Part shown: positions 33,055 to 41,332 of the stretch, one piece after another
How the letters are laid out: every line of letters begins with the position of its first letter
Position numbering within the stretch: the first letter of the stretch is position 1
Assembly (NCBI GenBank): GCA_965207885.1
Contig: OZ242311.1
Location: 320,001 to 384,000, forward strand
DNA: 64,000 nt
Origin: Candidatus Latescibacterota bacterium
GTDB taxonomy: Bacteria > Latescibacterota > UBA2968
Direction of reading: 5' to 3'
Notes under the pieces: generated by a model
The model's input: the letters and a program-made list of their open reading frames with translations, nothing else
The model's database searches: none
Told to the model about the DNA's origin: nothing
Program-made: the position numbers and the translations under genes

Positions 33055-33083
33055 TTGACATGTGCATCATTTGTGCATATATT
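33055..33083 (+). promoter_or_regulatory. Sigma70 promoter of brnTA
   Basis: TTGACA-17-TATATT with TGTGCA repeats in the spacer. Confidence 0.75.
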
Positions 33084-33089
33084 TGTTTT

Positions 33090-33371
33090 ATGAATTATCA
33101 ATGGGATCCAGAAAAAGCAGAATCAAATTTCCATACACATGGTGTTGATTTCGCTGACTCAATAGGCGTATTTGAGGATATCTGGGCATTGACCTTGAGA
33201 GAAGAGATTGTATCGGGTGAGCAACGATTTGCCACTCTTGGGACCGATTTCTTTGGACGAATTTTGGTTGTCGTTTATACATATCGAGACGAAGACATCC
33301 GTTTAATTTCCGCTCGTCCCGCAACGCGTCGGGAAAGGAGAATATATGAGCAAAAAAGAATATCATTTTGA
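33090..33371 (+). CDS. BrnT-family toxin
   Basis: WDPEKA..N..HGVDF, EQRFATLG, VVVYTYR, IRLISARPA. Confidence 0.92.
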   Translation: MNYQWDPEKAESNFHTHGVDFADSIGVFEDIWALTLREEIVSGEQRFATLGTDFFGRILVVVYTYRDEDIRLISARPATRRERRIYEQKRISF

Positions 33372-33606
33372 GACCGCCCAACAAGGCCCTGTCGTTCAGC
33401 CACCACCCGGCAAAACGCGCATCACCATTCGCCTTGACACAGACATTCTGAATTGGTTTAAGAAACAGGTTCACGAAGCAGGGGGCGGAAATTATCAGAC
33501 GCTTGTGAATCAGGCCCTCAGGGAACACATCCAGGCTAACAATGGCGCATTGGAACAAACACTGCGCAAAGTCATTCGCGAAGAACTCGGTTCATACTCA
33601 GTATAG
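33346..33606 (+). CDS. BrnA-family antitoxin
   Basis: KTRITIRLDTDILNWFK, GNYQTLVNQALR; overlaps toxin. Confidence 0.92.
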   Translation: MSKKEYHFETAQQGPVVQPPPGKTRITIRLDTDILNWFKKQVHEAGGGNYQTLVNQALREHIQANNGALEQTLRKVIREELGSYSV

Positions 33607-33675: not shown

Positions 33676-34692
33676 TCACATCTCCAGGTACGTTCTCAAC
33701 TCATTGGCCAAATTTTCTGCTTCATCCAGAGAAAGGTATGGCACTTTAATGGTTCGAGCGAAGAAAAAGCTCTTTCCAGTAATTTCAGATACTTTTCGAA
33801 AGGGCATGGCAGGTATCTCTTGACCCCTTTCGGGAACTGGAGTAATAAATTCCACAGCCCGATACTTGGCATTTTCATCATCCAGTGACACTATATTACC
33901 TGTTACTCGGCCAGCAGCAACAAGGCCAGTCCATCTGTGTGAAAAGAACACAATGTCACCCGGATAAATATATTCAATAAACCGCTTTGTATTTCCCCAT
34001 GCAGCTACTCGGTTATTTTCTATCATATACCAAATATAGTCTTCATCATAAGTTCTATTAGTATCGAACAACACCCCTTTGGTATCACTTGGGTTCCTGT
34101 GCTTATCATAAGGTAATGCAAAGAACTCAAAATATTGTTCGCCGTTCAGGTCATAGATTCTATACGGCAGAAAGTCGATTGAAATTCCCTGGTTTTTCCA
34201 ATAATCAACAGCATTTATGAGGCTATCGTCTGCGGCACTGCCGATTATTATTAGTCGTTGTTTGTTATTTATTTCTTTTTCGTCCAGTTTATGCTCAAGC
34301 TCAAAAGCCTCTTTGTGCGCCTTGCGTAAATCGGTATCTTCTTTTGTATATTGTCGGTATTTATTTTGCAAGGTTTTGTAACTCCATTGTCCGGCCTCTT
34401 GTGCATAACGTAGAGCCTGATGTACAGCATCTTCCCCAGCAGTTTCTCTTTTTAGTTCAAATATAATCAGTCTGCCTTTTTCATCTAATGCATAGATATC
34501 CGCTTCAGCTTGATATTGCCGCTCTTGAAATATTGGCATTAAACTGGCATCCTCAAATAGAACATCAAGAATGTTCCTCGCTATCAAATCCTCCAGGTCT
34601 TTTTCACGATTTCCAAAGCTAGAAAAATTCTTGAATGCTACGGGTTCGAGTGTATTGAACTTCCCGTCAGTTGAGCCAAGTTTGTACAGCAT
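33676..34692 (-). CDS. PD-(D/E)XK nuclease (NucS/Mrr-like) with C-terminal EVE/PUA-like domain
   Basis: EKDLE..ADIYALD..IIFELKR..QALRY nuclease pattern; C-terminal PGDIVFF..GLVAAGRV resembles EVE/PUA-like readers (inference). Confidence 0.7.
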   Translation of the reverse strand: MLYKLGSTDGKFNTLEPVAFKNFSSFGNREKDLEDLIARNILDVLFEDASLMPIFQERQYQAEADIYALDEKGRLIIFELKRETAGEDAVHQALRYAQEAGQWSYKTLQNKYRQYTKEDTDLRKAHKEAFELEHKLDEKEINNKQRLIIIGSAADDSLINAVDYWKNQGISIDFLPYRIYDLNGEQYFEFFALPYDKHRNPSDTKGVLFDTNRTYDEDYIWYMIENNRVAAWGNTKRFIEYIYPGDIVFFSHRWTGLVAAGRVTGNIVSLDDENAKYRAVEFITPVPERGQEIPAMPFRKVSEITGKSFFFARTIKVPYLSLDEAENLANELRTYLEM

Positions 34693-35013: not shown

Positions 35014-35925
35014 ATGAGTATTATTAAAGTGGTGGAAAAGTTCAAAAGTCAAGAGGATTGTATAGAGTTCCTTGAGTATTTGAGGTTCAACGACAATCCG
35101 TATTGTCCTCTGTGCAGTAGTCACAATGTAAGCAGGAAGAATCCGCAGGACAAAACAGAACGCTGGAGATGTCGAAGCTGTCGAAGTTCATTTAATGTCC
35201 TATCTGGAACAATATTCAGTGGAACGAGGACGCCTTTGAGAATCTGGTTTCTCGCAATCGTCTTGATGACTCACTCAAAGAAAGGAATATCGAGCTATAC
35301 GCTGGCAGAACTGCTTGATATATCACAAGATAACGCTTGGAGAATACAGGACAAGATAAGGCAAGAGATGTATGCTGAAGTCAACGAAACGCTTGTGCAA
35401 GCAATTACTGGAATATCTGAAATGGACGAGTCGTATGTGAGCATTAAAACAGAGTATCCACATAGTTCTTGGACAGACAAAATGGCAATTCTCGGAATTG
35501 TTTCAAGAAACGGCAAATTATCCGCTCGTAGGGTATATAGCACTGACACAGAAACGATGCAATGGTTTGCCTCCCAATACCTCGACCTGAACAACTCGAC
35601 GCTTTATACTGACCAATATCGCGGATACAACAAAATGAAAGAAATTGTAGAACAGGCGTATGTAAAAAGAAGGTACGGGAAATTTATTGACGATATACAT
35701 ACAAATAATATTGAGAGTCTTTGGGCAGTTGTCAAACGTACGTTCAAAGGAACGTATCATCATTGCAGCGAGGAACGTATAAATTGGTATCTCGCTGAAA
35801 CCTCGTTTAGATATAATTGGAAGCATTTGGATAAAGAGTCAGTATTTAGATATTTTCTCAAATTCTGTCTGTTCAAGCATCGTGATATAGCATATCACGT
35901 TATGAATGATAGCTGGTTGCTATGA
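35014..35925 (+). CDS. IS1595-family transposase
   Basis: Zn ribbon CPLC..CRSC, KKGISS HTH, EMDESY, YTDQY, HTNNIES, FRYN. Confidence 0.93.
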   Translation: MSIIKVVEKFKSQEDCIEFLEYLRFNDNPYCPLCSSHNVSRKNPQDKTERWRCRSCRSSFNVLSGTIFSGTRTPLRIWFLAIVLMTHSKKGISSYTLAELLDISQDNAWRIQDKIRQEMYAEVNETLVQAITGISEMDESYVSIKTEYPHSSWTDKMAILGIVSRNGKLSARRVYSTDTETMQWFASQYLDLNNSTLYTDQYRGYNKMKEIVEQAYVKRRYGKFIDDIHTNNIESLWAVVKRTFKGTYHHCSEERINWYLAETSFRYNWKHLDKESVFRYFLKFCLFKHRDIAYHVMNDSWLL

Positions 35926-36002
35926 TCATTAGAAGGAAGCCCGTTTATTGTAGAAGTCCATTTTAGTTTGACAGATTCGGATAGGTAGTTATCTTTCTAA
36001 AC

Positions 36003-36218
36003 GTCACAATCACGGCGGACCCGCTATGTCGGGTATCTGCTAAATACAACAACTCATTAAGCGATTTGGGGTAGCTCCCTGAATCCGAGTGAATAGGTAG
36101 AACTATCCCGCATTTTAAATCCGCGTGACTGTGACAATACCCGACACTTTTCGGTGTCGAGGCAGAAATCACGAACGGAGGACAGAATGCGGTATTTTTA
36201 TTCACAATAAGGATTCAG
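36003..36218 (+). ncRNA. Candidate structured leader RNA (two alternative folds)
   Basis: Several 6-16 bp complementary segments (see findings) downstream of TTGACA-16-TATCTT at 35968-35995. Confidence 0.55.
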
Positions 36219-36219
36219 A

Positions 36220-36588
36220 ATGAGCGAGAATCAACAATCGAAAGAAGATTCGGAAACTATCTTCTGCTGGCAAAATCTGAAATTGTCACCTAAGATATTC
36301 TGGATTGCTATGATCGTGGCGATAGGAGGTGTTTGGATCAGATTTGATAACACACTATATGCTTTTACTTTAGGTCCGTTGGTAGCTGTTGGAGGATGGA
36401 TTTTATACCTCTGGTATTTCCTGCCGATGATCCTATCGCACAGGAGAAACCATCCCAAGAAGTACCAACGAGTAGTGACAATTATTAACTTCTTTCTTGG
36501 TTGGACTACAGTAGGATGGATTGTAGCACTATTTCTCGCCTTCGCACCTAAAATAAAGGAAGATAAAAATGAGGAAATGGGAATATGA
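36220..36588 (+). CDS. Superinfection immunity (T4 Imm-like) membrane protein
   Basis: YFLPMIL..RRNH..IINFFLGWTTVGWIVAL matches the Imm_superinfect pattern; extra N-terminal TM helices. Confidence 0.82.
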   Translation: MSENQQSKEDSETIFCWQNLKLSPKIFWIAMIVAIGGVWIRFDNTLYAFTLGPLVAVGGWILYLWYFLPMILSHRRNHPKKYQRVVTIINFFLGWTTVGWIVALFLAFAPKIKEDKNEEMGI

Positions 36589-36754
36589 AGTTATAGACTG
36601 TCTTTTAACGGATTTGAAGAAGCAGATGAACTTGAAAAAGCACCTAAAAGAAACCAAGAAAGATAGATTCAAAGTAAAACCGATGGGGTTGGCTACCTAC
36701 GAGGAAGACGGTCAAACAAAATGTGTTCTGGCGTACGGTTGGAAGAGAAGATAG
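36569..36754 (+). CDS. Small hypothetical protein
   Basis: 61-aa ORF overlapping the Imm-like gene end, MRKWEYEVI start. Confidence 0.55.
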   Translation: MRKWEYEVIDCLLTDLKKQMNLKKHLKETKKDRFKVKPMGLATYEEDGQTKCVLAYGWKRR

Positions 36755-36866
36755 ATACTTGACAAAGTTTCAGAGTGTGATATTTTGGAGAAGGTGGGCA
36801 GGGCAACCCAACCAAGAACCGCTCTGCCCGTAGCCGATCATAACCCTGCCCTATAAAGGAACCAAT

Positions 36867-37019
36867 ATGACCGACCAGAAATCAGTTGAAAGAGACCAGA
36901 GAATTGCAGAATTGAGACGTGAATTGCAAGACTTAACAAACGAGAAGAACCGTGTAGAAACCGCACCTATCTTGGCGAGATTTAGAGAAATGCAGAAGAT
37001 ATTACCTTGGATGAAGTAG
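36867..37019 (+). CDS. 50-aa coiled-coil microprotein (absent from ORF track)
   Basis: MTDQKSVERDQRIAELRRELQDLTNEKNRVETAPILARFREMQKILPWMK; SD AAAGGA, own promoter (TTGACA 36759) and terminator. Confidence 0.6.
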   Translation: MTDQKSVERDQRIAELRRELQDLTNEKNRVETAPILARFREMQKILPWMK

Positions 37020-37042
37020 GTATCGGAAACAAACGCAATTTT

Positions 37043-37078
37043 AATCCGCCTTAAAGAAATTGAGGCGGATTTTTATTT
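37043..37078 (+). terminator. Intrinsic terminator near IS right end
   Basis: AATCCGCCTTAA-AGAAA-TTGAGGCGGATT then TTTATTT. Confidence 0.8.
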
Positions 37079-37251
37079 ACCCTACTGTTTTTACTGAAGA
37101 TGACTAATTGCGCCAACTACCCGTTGTTCCCGATGATTCCTTTCGCTCCTCCCTGCCGTGACTGTGATTCTGAGGTATGCGCCATTAGGATATAGCATTA
37201 AGAGAGCAGTTGTGAAAAAAATGGTCTAACTTGGGTCGGGTGGGGCGCACT

Positions 37252-38122: not shown

Positions 38123-41100
38123 TTAAACTCCTTTAAATTCCCTTCGTTCCGTCAGCCACAAGCCCTTTGCGATGACCGTTTCACCGGTGAATTTCGTCCA
38201 GTGTCTGGCATAGGTGTTTACCTGGTCGGCTGTTTGTTCACACAGTGCCTGTACATCTTCGTCGGTTTTCACTGCATTGGTTTTGTAATCGACGATTTTC
38301 CATCCTCTGGGCAGGCGATAGACCAGGTCGATGACGCCGCGAATAATTTCGCTGGCGTTGTTCTTCGCTTGCGATACCGCAAAGGGGACTTCGGTATAGA
38401 CGGTTTCCGAGGCCTGTATTTCCGTCCATATCTCCGAGTTGCGAAATTGCTGCAATGCATCCAGTGCGTTCGGTAAAAACTCGGCGTCTGCACCTGCCTC
38501 CTGTAGCAAATGTATGACATAAGGTGTGGGATCATCGGGCAATCGCATGTTGATGGCGTCGTCGAATATCCGGTGGATTACGGTGCCATACGCAGCGCCT
38601 TTGCCTGCTGCTGATCGCTCTTCGTCCGTATATGTGATGTCCGCCCGGTCATCTGTTACCTGTATTACTTCAAAGGATTGTTTTTGCACGGTTTTCCAGA
38701 ATTGATCTCTTTGTACTCGTTCCATTTCTACAGACGGTGTTTTGGTTGATGGGGTTTCTGGGGTGGGTTGCGCTGAATGGTCGCCGTGCGCCAGTTCGGG
38801 CACGTTTTTTAGATGGGGATAGAGCGGCGACCACGGTCCATGGTCGGGTTTTTCCTCGTAGGTGGATACTACGAGCAAGTTTTCTGCGCGCGTTGCTGCT
38901 ACGTAGAGCAATCGCAGTTCTTCGCCTTGCAAAAATTGCGTTTCTTCAGCTTGGGCATCTTCCCAACTCACAGGTTCGGCGACAACCTCGCGTTGATACG
39001 GTCCGCGGGGTTTTGTAATGGGCAATGCCAAAAAGGGCTCTTCGCGGGTGCGAGATACGTGAAATTCGGGACCATAGCGCGTGTAACTCGTGTCATAGGG
39101 GTCGGCGAGGAAGACGATTTTGCCCTGTAATCCCTTGGCCTGATGCAGGTTCATCAATCGCACGACGTTTTCCTGTGCGGAGGGGATGGTCATTTGTTCA
39201 ATTTTGTAGTCTCTGTCGTCAATGAGGGCGCGCAGTTCGGTCACCACCTGCCCCCAATGCATTCCCTGTGCGCTCCATTCGCGGATGAGAGATAATATGC
39301 GGATGAGATTGCCAGCGTGTGTTTCTCCCATGGGCAGGGTGCGCACAAAAGGCAGGAGGCCGAGTCTTTCTACACAGCGCGCTATGGCAGTATCTGGCGA
39401 TAGGGAGTGTAACCATTCCAACGCTTTTTTGAGATGGTCATAAGCCTGCTCGAATGTTCGGCGCAATTCTCGATCCATTCCTTTGGGTAAATCGCGTGTC
39501 CAATTAAAATCACCACCTGCTTTTTTGAACGCATAGAGGGCATCATCTCCCAGGCCGACGAGATCTCCCCGCAAATAGGCGAGTAGTGGTAGCGGATTGT
39601 CGGGCATATAAACGGTTTCCAAAAAATCTGTGAGCGTATGCAATACGTCTGCTTCACCCAGGCGATTGCCTCCCGTGATTTCAAAGGGAATGCTGCGTTC
39701 CTCCAGTGCCTGGGCGTAATGGGACAAATAGCCAGAGGTGCGCGTTAAGATGAGAAAGTCGCCCGGCGATGCGTTGGCGGCTTCTCCATTAATTTCCGTT
39801 TTGCCTTCTATGGCTGTTGCGATGAAGTTTGCAATCCGCGCGGCGTCTTCCTCTGCGATCTGGCTTCGGCTGTTGCGATAGACTTTGTCGATTGAGATTC
39901 GGCGGACCGCCATATTTTCACCATTGGGTCTGTATTTGAATAGCGGAGCAAATTCGGCTTGATAGGGTTTTTCATGCGCGGTGAACAGGGGTTCAAATGC
40001 CGCGTTGATCCAATCGCAGAGGTGACCCAGTGAGCGAAAGTTCGTGTTCAGGTTGACGATATCGCCATTGGTATTGTCAATGCGGTTGCGGACGAGGTCA
40101 AAGGTTTCGACATCCGCGCGGCGAAAGCGATAGATCGATTGTTTGCCGTCGCCTACTAAAAATAAGCTGCCCGGGCGGGGTGTGAGTTTGCGCCAATCGG
40201 TTTCTTGCAGGTTTTCGCCGGTTAAATACAGCAATATTTCGGCCTGGATGGGATCGGTATCCTGAAATTCATCTACGAATAGGCAGTGATAGCGATCCTG
40301 AAAGTGGCGGCGCACTTCGGGGTGGTCGCGCAGTAATCGCGCGGCGAGTTCGAGCAGGTCTTGAAATGTGAGGCGGCCGGATTCGCGGCGGGTTCTGGCG
40401 TATTCTGCAACTGCGTCATCGACAAAAGGAGCAGCGAACCGGTAGATGTATTGCCGCCATCTGGTGAGGGTGGGGTCGAGTATTTCGGTTTGAAATTCGG
40501 GTAATAAGGTGTCTCGCAAGTGTTTTGCAAAATCCTGGTTGGGCGTCCAGCTTTTGAGGGTGACACCGAGGTTTCCGCTGAGTATTTTCAGGAGTTCGAT
40601 GCGATCCGCGTCGGACTGAATCCCCCGGTTCGACAGGAATAATCGCGCGCGGGACAATGCTGTCTGGAGGGCATCGCGTCTGCCGGAAAGTGGATCGGGG
40701 ATATGGGCTTCCGTGCGTTGCAGAAATGCTTCAAGTTGTGAAACTGCGGTCGATAAATCGGGTTTTTGTACTGGTTCGCTTACGAGCGGTACATCGCTGA
40801 ACTGGTAGCGTCTTTGAAAAAATCCATACAGGTCTTCCGGGCGCAGACCCAGTTCTTCAAATTTGACGAGTCGCGGGTCTTCAGATAGAAAACGCTGCTG
40901 GACAAATTGATCCCACGCTTCGCGGCGCATGACGGCTTCTTCGCGTTCTTCGACTTCTGAAAAGTCGGGTGGCAGGCTCGCTTCAACGGGTCGTTCTCGC
41001 AATAACTGGCCGCAGAATGAGTGTATGGTGCCAATAAAGCATTGATCTACTTTTTCGAGTGCGTTTTGAATGCGGTCCAGGTCCTCACCGTCTGCGTTTT

Positions 41101-41332
41101 TGGCACGCGATTTTAATTCACTGAAAAATCGCCCGCGCATTTCACCTGCTGCTTTGCGCGTAAAGGTGATGGCGGATAGTTGATCTACGGCTACGACCCC
41201 TTTTTCCACCGCGTTCACCATCCGCTGCACCAGCGCATAGGTTTTTCCCGCACCAGCTCCTGCGAGCACCATCATATTGCGATCCAGTGCTTCGGCTATT
41301 TTATCGCGTGCTTGTTGATCTCGAAGGTTCAT
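38123..41332 (-). CDS. addA: UvrD-type helicase-nuclease, AddA-like
   Basis: AGAGAGKT, ITFTRKAA, VDEFQDT, VGDGKQSIYRFR, YVAATRA, C-terminal GVIDL..IVDYKT. Confidence 0.88.
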   Translation of the reverse strand: MNLRDQQARDKIAEALDRNMMVLAGAGAGKTYALVQRMVNAVEKGVVAVDQLSAITFTRKAAGEMRGRFFSELKSRAKNADGEDLDRIQNALEKVDQCFIGTIHSFCGQLLRERPVEASLPPDFSEVEEREEAVMRREAWDQFVQQRFLSEDPRLVKFEELGLRPEDLYGFFQRRYQFSDVPLVSEPVQKPDLSTAVSQLEAFLQRTEAHIPDPLSGRRDALQTALSRARLFLSNRGIQSDADRIELLKILSGNLGVTLKSWTPNQDFAKHLRDTLLPEFQTEILDPTLTRWRQYIYRFAAPFVDDAVAEYARTRRESGRLTFQDLLELAARLLRDHPEVRRHFQDRYHCLFVDEFQDTDPIQAEILLYLTGENLQETDWRKLTPRPGSLFLVGDGKQSIYRFRRADVETFDLVRNRIDNTNGDIVNLNTNFRSLGHLCDWINAAFEPLFTAHEKPYQAEFAPLFKYRPNGENMAVRRISIDKVYRNSRSQIAEEDAARIANFIATAIEGKTEINGEAANASPGDFLILTRTSGYLSHYAQALEERSIPFEITGGNRLGEADVLHTLTDFLETVYMPDNPLPLLAYLRGDLVGLGDDALYAFKKAGGDFNWTRDLPKGMDRELRRTFEQAYDHLKKALEWLHSLSPDTAIARCVERLGLLPFVRTLPMGETHAGNLIRILSLIREWSAQGMHWGQVVTELRALIDDRDYKIEQMTIPSAQENVVRLMNLHQAKGLQGKIVFLADPYDTSYTRYGPEFHVSRTREEPFLALPITKPRGPYQREVVAEPVSWEDAQAEETQFLQGEELRLLYVAATRAENLLVVSTYEEKPDHGPWSPLYPHLKNVPELAHGDHSAQPTPETPSTKTPSVEMERVQRDQFWKTVQKQSFEVIQVTDDRADITYTDEERSAAGKGAAYGTVIHRIFDDAINMRLPDDPTPYVIHLLQEAGADAEFLPNALDALQQFRNSEIWTEIQASETVYTEVPFAVSQAKNNASEIIRGVIDLVYRLPRGWKIVDYKTNAVKTDEDVQALCEQTADQVNTYARHWTKFTGETVIAKGLWLTERREFKGV

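Follow-up and report, generated by a model that had tools for sequence, protein, structure and literature searches.

The window analysed here, a 64,000-nucleotide (nt) stretch of a Candidatus Latescibacterota genome (GenBank assembly GCA_965207885.1, contig OZ242311.1, positions 320,001 to 384,000), contains a gene for a 122-amino-acid (aa) membrane protein with a superinfection-immunity domain, which we refer to as the Imm-like gene. The domain (PF14373) spans residues 66–108 of the product and scores 47.5 bits against a cut-off of 27.9 (E = 1.6e-12). An open reading frame (ORF) for an IS1595 transposase (35014–35925) lies upstream and ends 43 nt before a sigma-70-type promoter sequence, composed of TTGACA (35968–35973) and TATCTT (35990–35995) with a 16-nt spacer, that scored 10/12 in our promoter scan. 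Judged from the sequence, this promoter-like site lies 7 nt 5′ of the first helix of a structured leader situated between the promoter and the ORF, and equivalent hexamers occur at equal spacing 5′ of the first helix in 25 aligned relatives. The Imm-like gene starts 18 nt past the U-tract of the leader, and this interval holds no promoter-like site of its own. We assign nucleotides 36002–36202 as the 5′ leader of the Imm-like gene, place them in a structured-RNA family that is widely distributed, and suggest that the leader controls this gene. An initial annotation of this DNA had proposed a two-state RNA leader here, and the promoter, helices, GGAGG motif and 7-codon ORF that it described can all be read from the sequence where it placed them. 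On the evidence below we think it probable, though some way from certain, that the leader belongs to a new riboswitch-like class of cis-regulatory RNA that is uncatalogued in Rfam 15. Its elements, all on the plus strand, are as follows.

35968–35995: sigma-70-type promoter, TTGACA and TATCTT separated by 16 nt, with a predicted transcript start at about 36002.
36003–36019: 5′ strand of helix P1, pairing with 36120–36135 in 15 base pairs (bp), with an A.C mismatch (36009/36129) and one bulged G.
36020–36023: CCC(G), conserved in the alignments; a local hairpin with GGG at 36031–36033 is possible.
36027–36035: 5′ strand of the pseudoknot, TGTCGGGTA, pairing with 36138–36146 and crossing P1 (duplex −14.1 kcal/mol).
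36036–36101: hairpin arm containing P2–P4 and an internal loop, from the covariance-model alignment.
36036–36040 with 36097–36101: helix P2 (98.3% paired).
36041–36049 and 36091–36096: conserved, near-symmetric internal loop with an AAUA core on both strands.
36052–36055 with 36087–36090: helix P3 (92.8% paired).
36063–36071 with 36077–36085: helix P4 (83% paired), with the apical loop UAGCU.
36108–36114: linker CCGCATT, the 5′ arm of helix T1, pairing with 36186–36192.
36120–36135: 3′ strand of P1, of which 36120–36128 alternatively pairs with 36169–36179 (helix T2) in the terminator state.
36138–36146: 3′ strand of the pseudoknot, TACCCGACA, overlapping the 5′ arm of hairpin E.
36142–36159: hairpin E (CGACAC-TTTTCG-GTGTCG), present in the minimum-free-energy (MFE) fold and exclusive of the pseudoknot.
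36169–36181: competitor segment, comprising the 3′ arm of T2 (36169–36179) and overlapping GGAGG (36177–36181).
36186–36202: 3′ arm of T1 (AATGCGG) followed by the U-tract TATTTTTATT, a predicted intrinsic terminator.
36187–36210: 7-codon ORF (MRYFYSQ-stop), whose ATG corresponds by homology to the start codon that the regulated gene uses in some relatives.
36199–36218: 3′ strands of two outer helices, pairing with 36079–36095 and covering the AAGGA (36209–36213) of the Imm-like gene.
36220–36588: Imm-like gene, encoding the 122-aa superinfection-immunity-domain (PF14373) membrane protein.

When folded with ViennaRNA, nucleotides 36000–36240 of the plus strand adopt as their MFE structure the long nested hairpin described in the initial annotation (−73.3 kcal/mol, z −3.82), and none of 200 dinucleotide shuffles was equally stable; the minus strand folds less well (z −2.28, with 4/200 shuffles as stable). 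From the outermost helix inwards, CTGAATCC (36079–36086) pairs with GGATTCAG (36211–36218), GTGAATA (36089–36095) with TATTCAC (36199–36205), CCGCATT (36108–36114) with AATGCGG (36186–36192; T1) and TCCG-CGTGA (36120–36128) with TCACG-AA-CGGA (36169–36179; T2), with hairpin E as the cap. Two alternative pairings are available to the 5′ end: GTCACAATCACGGCGGA (36003–36019) with 36120–36135, a duplex of −21.3 kcal/mol in the window copy, and TGTCGGGTAT (36027–36036) with ATACCCGACA (36137–36146), a perfect 10-bp match. These competing partners, which had been noticed in pseudoknot order from the single sequence, proved to be the conserved, covarying P1 and pseudoknot of the relatives described below.

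A blastn search with the leader region revealed two further partial copies in the source genome, with approximately 75% identity, and matches in 29 of 61 related genomes; in an alignment of 25 copies, the conserved block spans the promoter to the T-run. We then scanned one genome per species with a degenerate 24–25-nt pattern taken from the most conserved stretch, which gave at least 118 stretches. The record titles of these matches, from which the taxa are taken, name at least eight phyla and include Latescibacterota, Gemmatimonadota, Acidobacteriota, Binatia, Nitrospirales, Thermodesulfobacteriota, Alpha- and Gammaproteobacteria and Limisphaerales. Among the 80 matches listed are 32 Latescibacterota metagenome-assembled genomes, 12 Gemmatimonadota or Longimicrobiales, 7 Acidobacteriota-type, 4 Binatia, 15 Alphaproteobacteria and 5 gammaproteobacterial or related sequences, with one each from Nitrospirales, Thermodesulfobacteriota, Limisphaerales, Parabacteroides and an unclassified bacterium. 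The neighbourhoods of the matches show that the copies share an entire core of about 130 nt, beyond the pattern alone. A covariance model (R1) built on the nested part of the structure gave 109 matches in 97 of the 100 sources searched and none in the other three (L075, which is titled Parabacteroides, L098 and L127). By the covariance model, 62 of 151 sampled genomes of the phylum carry between 1 and 13 copies each, nine R1 matches (the window copy included) being present in the source genome; the distribution is patchy across the phylum and dense in some genera (18/19, 15/15 and 18/22). The Alphaproteobacteria include the cultured carriers Gluconacetobacter, Komagataeibacter and Kaistia, with model matches of 36–56 bits, so that the function of the leader is directly testable.

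Two unusual arrangements were encountered in this survey. Four identical copies in the source genome (contig C1, positions 304986, 631098, 2368377 and 2611362; loci L155–L158), one of them 15 kb before the window, share at least 3 kb of identical flank and each precede a gene whose 210-aa product is hydrophobic at its N-terminus and matches no Pfam family; this unit looks recently multiplied and is possibly mobile. At L059:3299-3898 (titled Parvibaculaceae), four tandem shortened copies, with P3/P4 cut to a few pairs, lie 5′ of a 103-aa membrane-like ORF, an arrangement that fits either tandem sensors or a small-RNA array.

To evaluate the structure across relatives we used two alignments, from which 12 pattern matches without the 3′ pseudoknot motif or at a locus end were left out; six sequences (five longer than 160 nt and one running off its locus) were dropped before alignment A3. 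In A4, 29 diverse copies were aligned by MAFFT alone with no structure fitting, and from this alignment RNAalifold predicted P1, P2 and P3 unaided, with compensatory changes in 17 of 29 pairs. The structure scored consists of P1 (15 bp), P2 (5 bp), P3 (4 bp), P4 (9 bp) and the pseudoknot that crosses P1 (10 bp). In A4, 92.3% of cells are paired, compared with 79.5% in column shuffles (0/500 as high) and 35–46% when partners are slid by 1–3 columns, and 13 of the 15 P1 pairs changed on both sides. The R1-derived alignment A5, with 108 distinct rows, gave 92.5% paired cells versus 70.4% when shuffled (0/500 as high) and 33–41% with slid partners, with double-sided changes in 34 of 42 pairs, including all 15 of P1; since A5 is fitted to the model and contains close kin, its statistics overstate independence. 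The recurrence of the leader core with compensatory changes in relatives is more than chance.

The unpaired nucleotides of the sensor domain are also strongly conserved. The internal loop has the consensus YGAAUACAA opposite GAAUAG (UAAAUACAA in the window), and across 111 sequences its nucleotides are invariant or nearly so, and the positions of the apical GGG-UAGCU-CCC likewise rank among the best conserved. The pseudoknot core GUCGGG/CCCGRC hardly varies, except that it alternates between U-G and U-A; because the U-G pair would be C-A on the opposite strand, the RNA is read from the plus strand. The pair beside this core covaries freely (CG 31, AU 24, UG 20, GC 10, GU 8, UA 6). The sensor domain alone (36002–36148) folds in ViennaRNA to the consensus P1, P2 and P3/P4 at −48.6 kcal/mol. 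A local hairpin between CCC(G) and GGG is present in the predicted terminator-state fold, and we infer that 36020–36023 would adopt it when the pseudoknot is absent.

In the window copy, nucleotides 36108–36202 can form a structure that is incompatible with the sensor fold. The G+C-rich T1 stem (duplex −11.6 kcal/mol, z −3.4) and the U-tract that follows it most likely constitute an intrinsic (Rho-independent) terminator; a simple terminator scan made no call at T1, as its rule admits only loops of 3–8 nt and the T1 loop is longer. T1 covaries among lineages, being CGCATTT/AAATGCG in the lineage nearest the window, CCCGCATCC/GGATG..GCGGG in another genus and GCAGTATCT with AGATAACTGC in a second copy from the source genome. 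The arms of hairpin E also vary in a complementary manner (GGCACCC/GGGTGCC, GGCTCCC/GGGAGCC, GGCCCCC/GGGGGCC), and an equivalent of −8 kcal/mol or lower is found in 75 of 93 members, with z below −2 in 29 of the 93. T2 uses the 5′ part of the P1 3′ strand and the 5′ arm of hairpin E is the 3′ strand of the pseudoknot, so P1 and the pseudoknot draw on the very nucleotides that T2 and E require; in addition, T1 would need to cross P1. Over 36002–36200, the best P1-state fold (−63.3 kcal/mol) and the terminator-state fold (−62.8 kcal/mol) are essentially equal in ViennaRNA, and when the ribosome-binding region of the gene is added (36002–36222) the long hairpin is the more stable (−67.8 versus −62.6 kcal/mol). 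The notion of two mutually exclusive folds in a structured 5′ leader is therefore supported, and in the window copy the two are near-isoenergetic.

The downstream half of the leader is less uniform than the sensor. A T-run, defined as five consecutive T, occurs within 140 nt in only 27 of 107 members, the others proceeding directly to a Shine-Dalgarno sequence and start codon, and a significant duplex between the linker and the segment before the T-run was detected in 7 of the 20 distinct members that have one. Some members contain pairings close to the start site in place of terminators. Expression platforms thus vary within the family, with terminators in some members and probably translational control in others; such variation is typical of riboswitches.

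These comparisons change how the 3′ part of the window leader is read. The initial annotation had interpreted the ATG at 36187 as the start of an upstream ORF whose Shine-Dalgarno sequence is buried by the hairpin. The hairpin does cover GGAGG, and the ATG and following T-run coincide with the 3′ arm and U-tract of a terminator with a covarying stem, so the first layer of control is most likely transcription termination, and not burial of the ribosome-binding site alone. The ATG exists because T1 requires it, being the complement of the CAT in the conserved linker. Some relatives use this ATG, preceded by the same GGAGG, as the start codon of the long downstream gene (MRFF.., MRIF..). In one relative the ATG shares the frame of the gene, and in others a short out-of-frame ORF begins there. 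The 7-codon ORF of the window is a remnant, with a new ribosome-binding site and then the Imm-like gene downstream of it; translation of this ORF is possible, but it is not a conserved leader peptide. The long hairpin itself is present in the window, and its two outermost helices, which join the 3′ strand of P4 and the GAAUAG loop to the U-tract and AAGGA, proved specific to this copy: the duplex (−19.3 kcal/mol, z −4.67) is the strongest of 20 members, only three others having z below −2. In the folding model these helices look like a copy-specific extra lock on translation.

RNA-library contigs from a single study, comprising four metatranscriptome runs labelled sponge metagenome, were compared over 35500–37100. 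One contig spans 35996–37100 and another 36013–36392, both bridging leader, terminator and gene. Nucleotides 35973–35995 have no contig cover in the four runs; the contig that begins at 35996 was not counted as evidence for the start site. The contigs carry four variants within the leader. By our mapping onto pairs, 36129 C>T converts the A.C mismatch of P1 to A-U, and 36081 G>A converts a U.G pair of P4 to U-A and would break a G-C pair of the outer helix; the other two variants (36061 and 36152) fall at positions unpaired in the consensus.

Most members end 20–60 nt 5′ of a Shine-Dalgarno sequence and start codon. To characterise the genes concerned, we took 99 distinct copies and, for each, compared the first downstream ORF preceded by a Shine-Dalgarno-like sequence with Pfam and NCBIfam. 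Most had no family, and those identified are scattered, comprising CPBP or CAAX proteases (4), surface-lipoprotein-like proteins (3), secreted nucleases (2), WD40 proteins (2) and ankyrin proteins (2), with PF14373 in the window copy only. PEP-CTERM, or any single downstream protein family, was rejected as the common factor since no family dominates. The products share features of their N-termini: a strongly hydrophobic 12-mer within the first 45 residues occurs in 60 of the 99 downstream ORFs compared with 126 of 836 controls, and a lipobox in 20 of the 99 compared with 23 of 836. The controls, 836 other long ORFs of the same loci, are crude in that they include spurious ORFs, and the contrast is large. 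One copy in the source genome (L002:1701-3128 and relatives) precedes a gene for a secreted WD40 beta-propeller protein, and two ankyrin-repeat proteins lie downstream of copies elsewhere, so 'eukaryote-like' repeat proteins belong to the regulon.

No Rfam 15 family accounts for the leader, in agreement with the initial annotation, which could match it to none by eye. Searches with Rfam 15 gave no matches across the whole window at gathering thresholds, only an unrelated snoRNA model (36622–36646) at E up to 10 over 35700–36700, and nothing at the element in 18 distant loci (gathering) or nine close loci (E up to 1); a weak His_leader match (E 0.31, below gathering) lies outside the element in one relative. 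Literature searches, and searches by term of passages of PMC7266159 and of the main text of PMC5737381, turned up no account of the motif; supplementary motif lists were not covered, and an earlier description is possible. In architecture the leader resembles riboswitches that act through terminators and antiterminators, in that it has a covarying 5′ sensor, a P1 3′ strand shared with the platform and a pseudoknot; it also shares with riboswitches variable platforms and the occurrence of several copies per genome before heterogeneous genes, here mostly envelope-related or secreted, and yet it matches none of the 4227 Rfam 15 models in sequence or structure. By pattern of gene association the nearest analogue would be the class I riboswitch for cyclic di-guanosine monophosphate, c-di-GMP-I (GEMM). 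A search of the source genome with the corresponding model, RF01051, found nothing but is uninformative, as its control also matched none of 14 genomes; c-di-GMP is not favoured as ligand since only one GGDEF protein in the source genome exceeds the cut-off, and it was dropped as unsupported. The trp and his attenuators also combine a short ORF near a terminator in the 5′ leader with alternative hairpins. In those systems the ORF lies upstream of the terminator, whereas in the window it lies inside the 3′ arm and is not conserved as an ORF across relatives.

We propose the following mechanism. In one state, the sensor domain (36003–36146) would form P1, the P2–P4 arm with its conserved loop and the pseudoknot, in which GUCGGGU of the 5′ junction pairs with CCCGAC immediately 3′ of P1. 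In the other, the platform (36108–36202) would refold into hairpin E, T2 and T1 with the U-tract, hiding GGAGG and the ATG at 36187. Because P1 and the pseudoknot use the same nucleotides as the terminator, only one of the two can form at a time. Most likely, a ligand, either a small molecule or an ion, makes P1 and the pseudoknot more stable, allowing RNA polymerase to continue into the Imm-like gene; without this ligand, transcription would end at about 36200. In this copy, pairing of the gene's ribosome-binding site with the P4 3′ strand may add a third layer. The analysis shows the sequence features, their conservation and covariation, and that the two folds exclude each other on paper. 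Transcription from 36002, switching, a small-ligand trigger and the direction of the switch are deductions from the model, and a ligand that favours read-through is the more likely direction. The invariant unpaired nucleotides of the sensor, its fixed placement between promoter and gene, its multiple copies and its interchangeable platforms fit a riboswitch, an identification to which we attach better than even confidence. A cis-acting structured leader with antiterminator logic is a well-known kind of regulator, and it is the family itself that appears to be uncatalogued.

The same leader and folds could instead respond to a macromolecule, with RNA-binding regulatory proteins, small RNAs and the machinery of translation or export as candidates. 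What the regulated genes have in common is where their products go rather than a pathway (60/99 with a hydrophobic N-terminus, 20/99 with a lipobox), and the near-symmetric loop and self-complementary apical AGCU might dock a protein or RNA. Such a trigger is nonetheless unlikely in our estimation, as invariant nucleotides across at least eight phyla would demand an equally conserved partner, and no regulator gene conserved beside the element came to notice, although no systematic search for one was made. It is more doubtful still that the element is an independent small RNA, about 195 nt long between the promoter at 35968 and the terminator at 36202, that acts in trans, with read-through into the gene being incidental. 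The promoter-like site and predicted terminator would suit a small RNA, as would the distance of about 380–680 nt to the next gene in one genus and the four tandem copies at one locus, tandem arrays being common among small RNAs. On the other hand, a run of five T within 140 nt is confined to 27/107 members and a matching terminator stem to 7/20 distinct ones, most members lead straight to a Shine-Dalgarno sequence and start codon, the window gene lies 18 nt past the U-tract and lacks a separate promoter-like site in between, and RNA-library contigs bridge leader and gene.

Two further explanations draw on the genomic context. The initial annotation had compared the leader with the immunity RNAs P1 c4 and P4 CI and with type I toxin–antitoxin leaders. 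In favour of this are the superinfection-immunity domain downstream, the long-range 5′–3′ pairing, the short ORF and a setting that resembles a variable island, containing an IS1595 transposase and a BrnT/BrnA pair. The likeness to P1 c4 and P4 CI lies in a small structured RNA with alternative pairings and a tie to superinfection immunity. Those RNAs act as antisense within phage genomes, whereas this leader is sense, precedes many unrelated genes and is chromosomal in many phyla; there is no C4-type or other Rfam match at the element at E up to 10, a motif scan of 2.9 million viral contigs gave none and distant blastn of the window leader against plasmids gave none, and on the last two results a phage or plasmid origin was rejected. 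In hok/sok-type leaders, long-range 5′–3′ pairing gates the ribosome-binding site and a short upstream reading frame is present, as in the window leader. The window product is a 122-aa PF14373 protein rather than a small hydrophobic toxin of under about 60 aa, PF14373 follows one of 99 copies, and the helices are kept before diverse, unrelated genes. As for an antisense gene, none was identified, and minus-strand promoter-like sites reach only 9/12 and are no commoner than in shuffles; antisense RNA was not otherwise searched for. The analogy is largely refuted, and we give it very little credence. Equally improbable is a repeated mobile element, such as a miniature inverted-repeat element or the end of an insertion sequence, that mimics RNA structure. 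The element is multi-copy in the genome, including four identical copies, and the IS1595 transposase ORF ends 43 nt upstream; against this, intragenomic copies are only about 75% identical, save for those in a single repeat, at least 3 kb long, that includes the whole gene; the helices change in a compensatory manner, their G-U pairs are strand-specific and the copies keep a fixed position with respect to promoter and start codon.

Several observations weigh against the riboswitch interpretation or limit its scope. Only 29 of 107 members have, further downstream, a segment that clearly competes for the P1 3′ strand (z below −2), and the median z is −0.88. GUCGGG has three candidate partners (the upstream CCCG, the linker CCCGCA and CCCGAC), so the exact active fold is not settled. 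The scattered downstream families, the largest of which accounts for four of 99 ORFs, give no metabolic logic. The four tandem minimal copies of L059 resemble free-standing small RNAs, as do the copies of one genus in which a gene-free interval of about 380–680 nt follows a strong terminator. The evidence for transcription consists of contigs from one study, which lack starts, ends, strand and level and may include DNA carry-over, and the kinship among the rows of A5 noted above belongs here as well.

If the leader is a riboswitch, it represents a new class with more than 100 representatives in many, mostly uncultured, phyla, and its ligand would reveal a signal for exported and surface proteins, a regulon seldom covered by known riboswitches. 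We suggest tentatively, as a possibility somewhat short of an even chance, that this is an undescribed, phylogenetically broad class whose ligand governs an exported, surface and membrane regulon, one that takes in secreted WD40 and ankyrin proteins in sponge-associated bacteria; were this true, the class would offer a direct chemical handle on what uncultured symbionts display to their host or environment. For annotation, the finding explains the recurrent 'empty' stretch of 150–200 nt 5′ of genes for hypothetical lipoproteins, and it identifies the short ORF in the window as a by-product of the terminator stem.

The wider neighbourhood contains a BrnT toxin/BrnA antitoxin pair with overlapping frames (33060–33606; PF04365 1.3e-24, PF14384 2e-11), a NucS_C-domain protein (33676–34692, minus strand) and a 1069-aa UvrD-type helicase with a C-terminal PD-(D/E)XK nuclease domain (38123–41332, minus strand). 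The NucS_C protein and the helicase flank the region, which, taken with the IS1595 transposase, has the look of a variable island. Another strong promoter-like site (TTGACA-16-TATTTT with TG, 10/12) lies at 36759–36786, past a small ORF (36569–36754) and 5′ of a G+C-rich inverted repeat and a 50-aa ORF (36867–37019). The RNA-library contigs differ from the window at 36849, 36871, 36872 and 36975 and by an inserted T after 36855, which is strain variation around the start of this small ORF.

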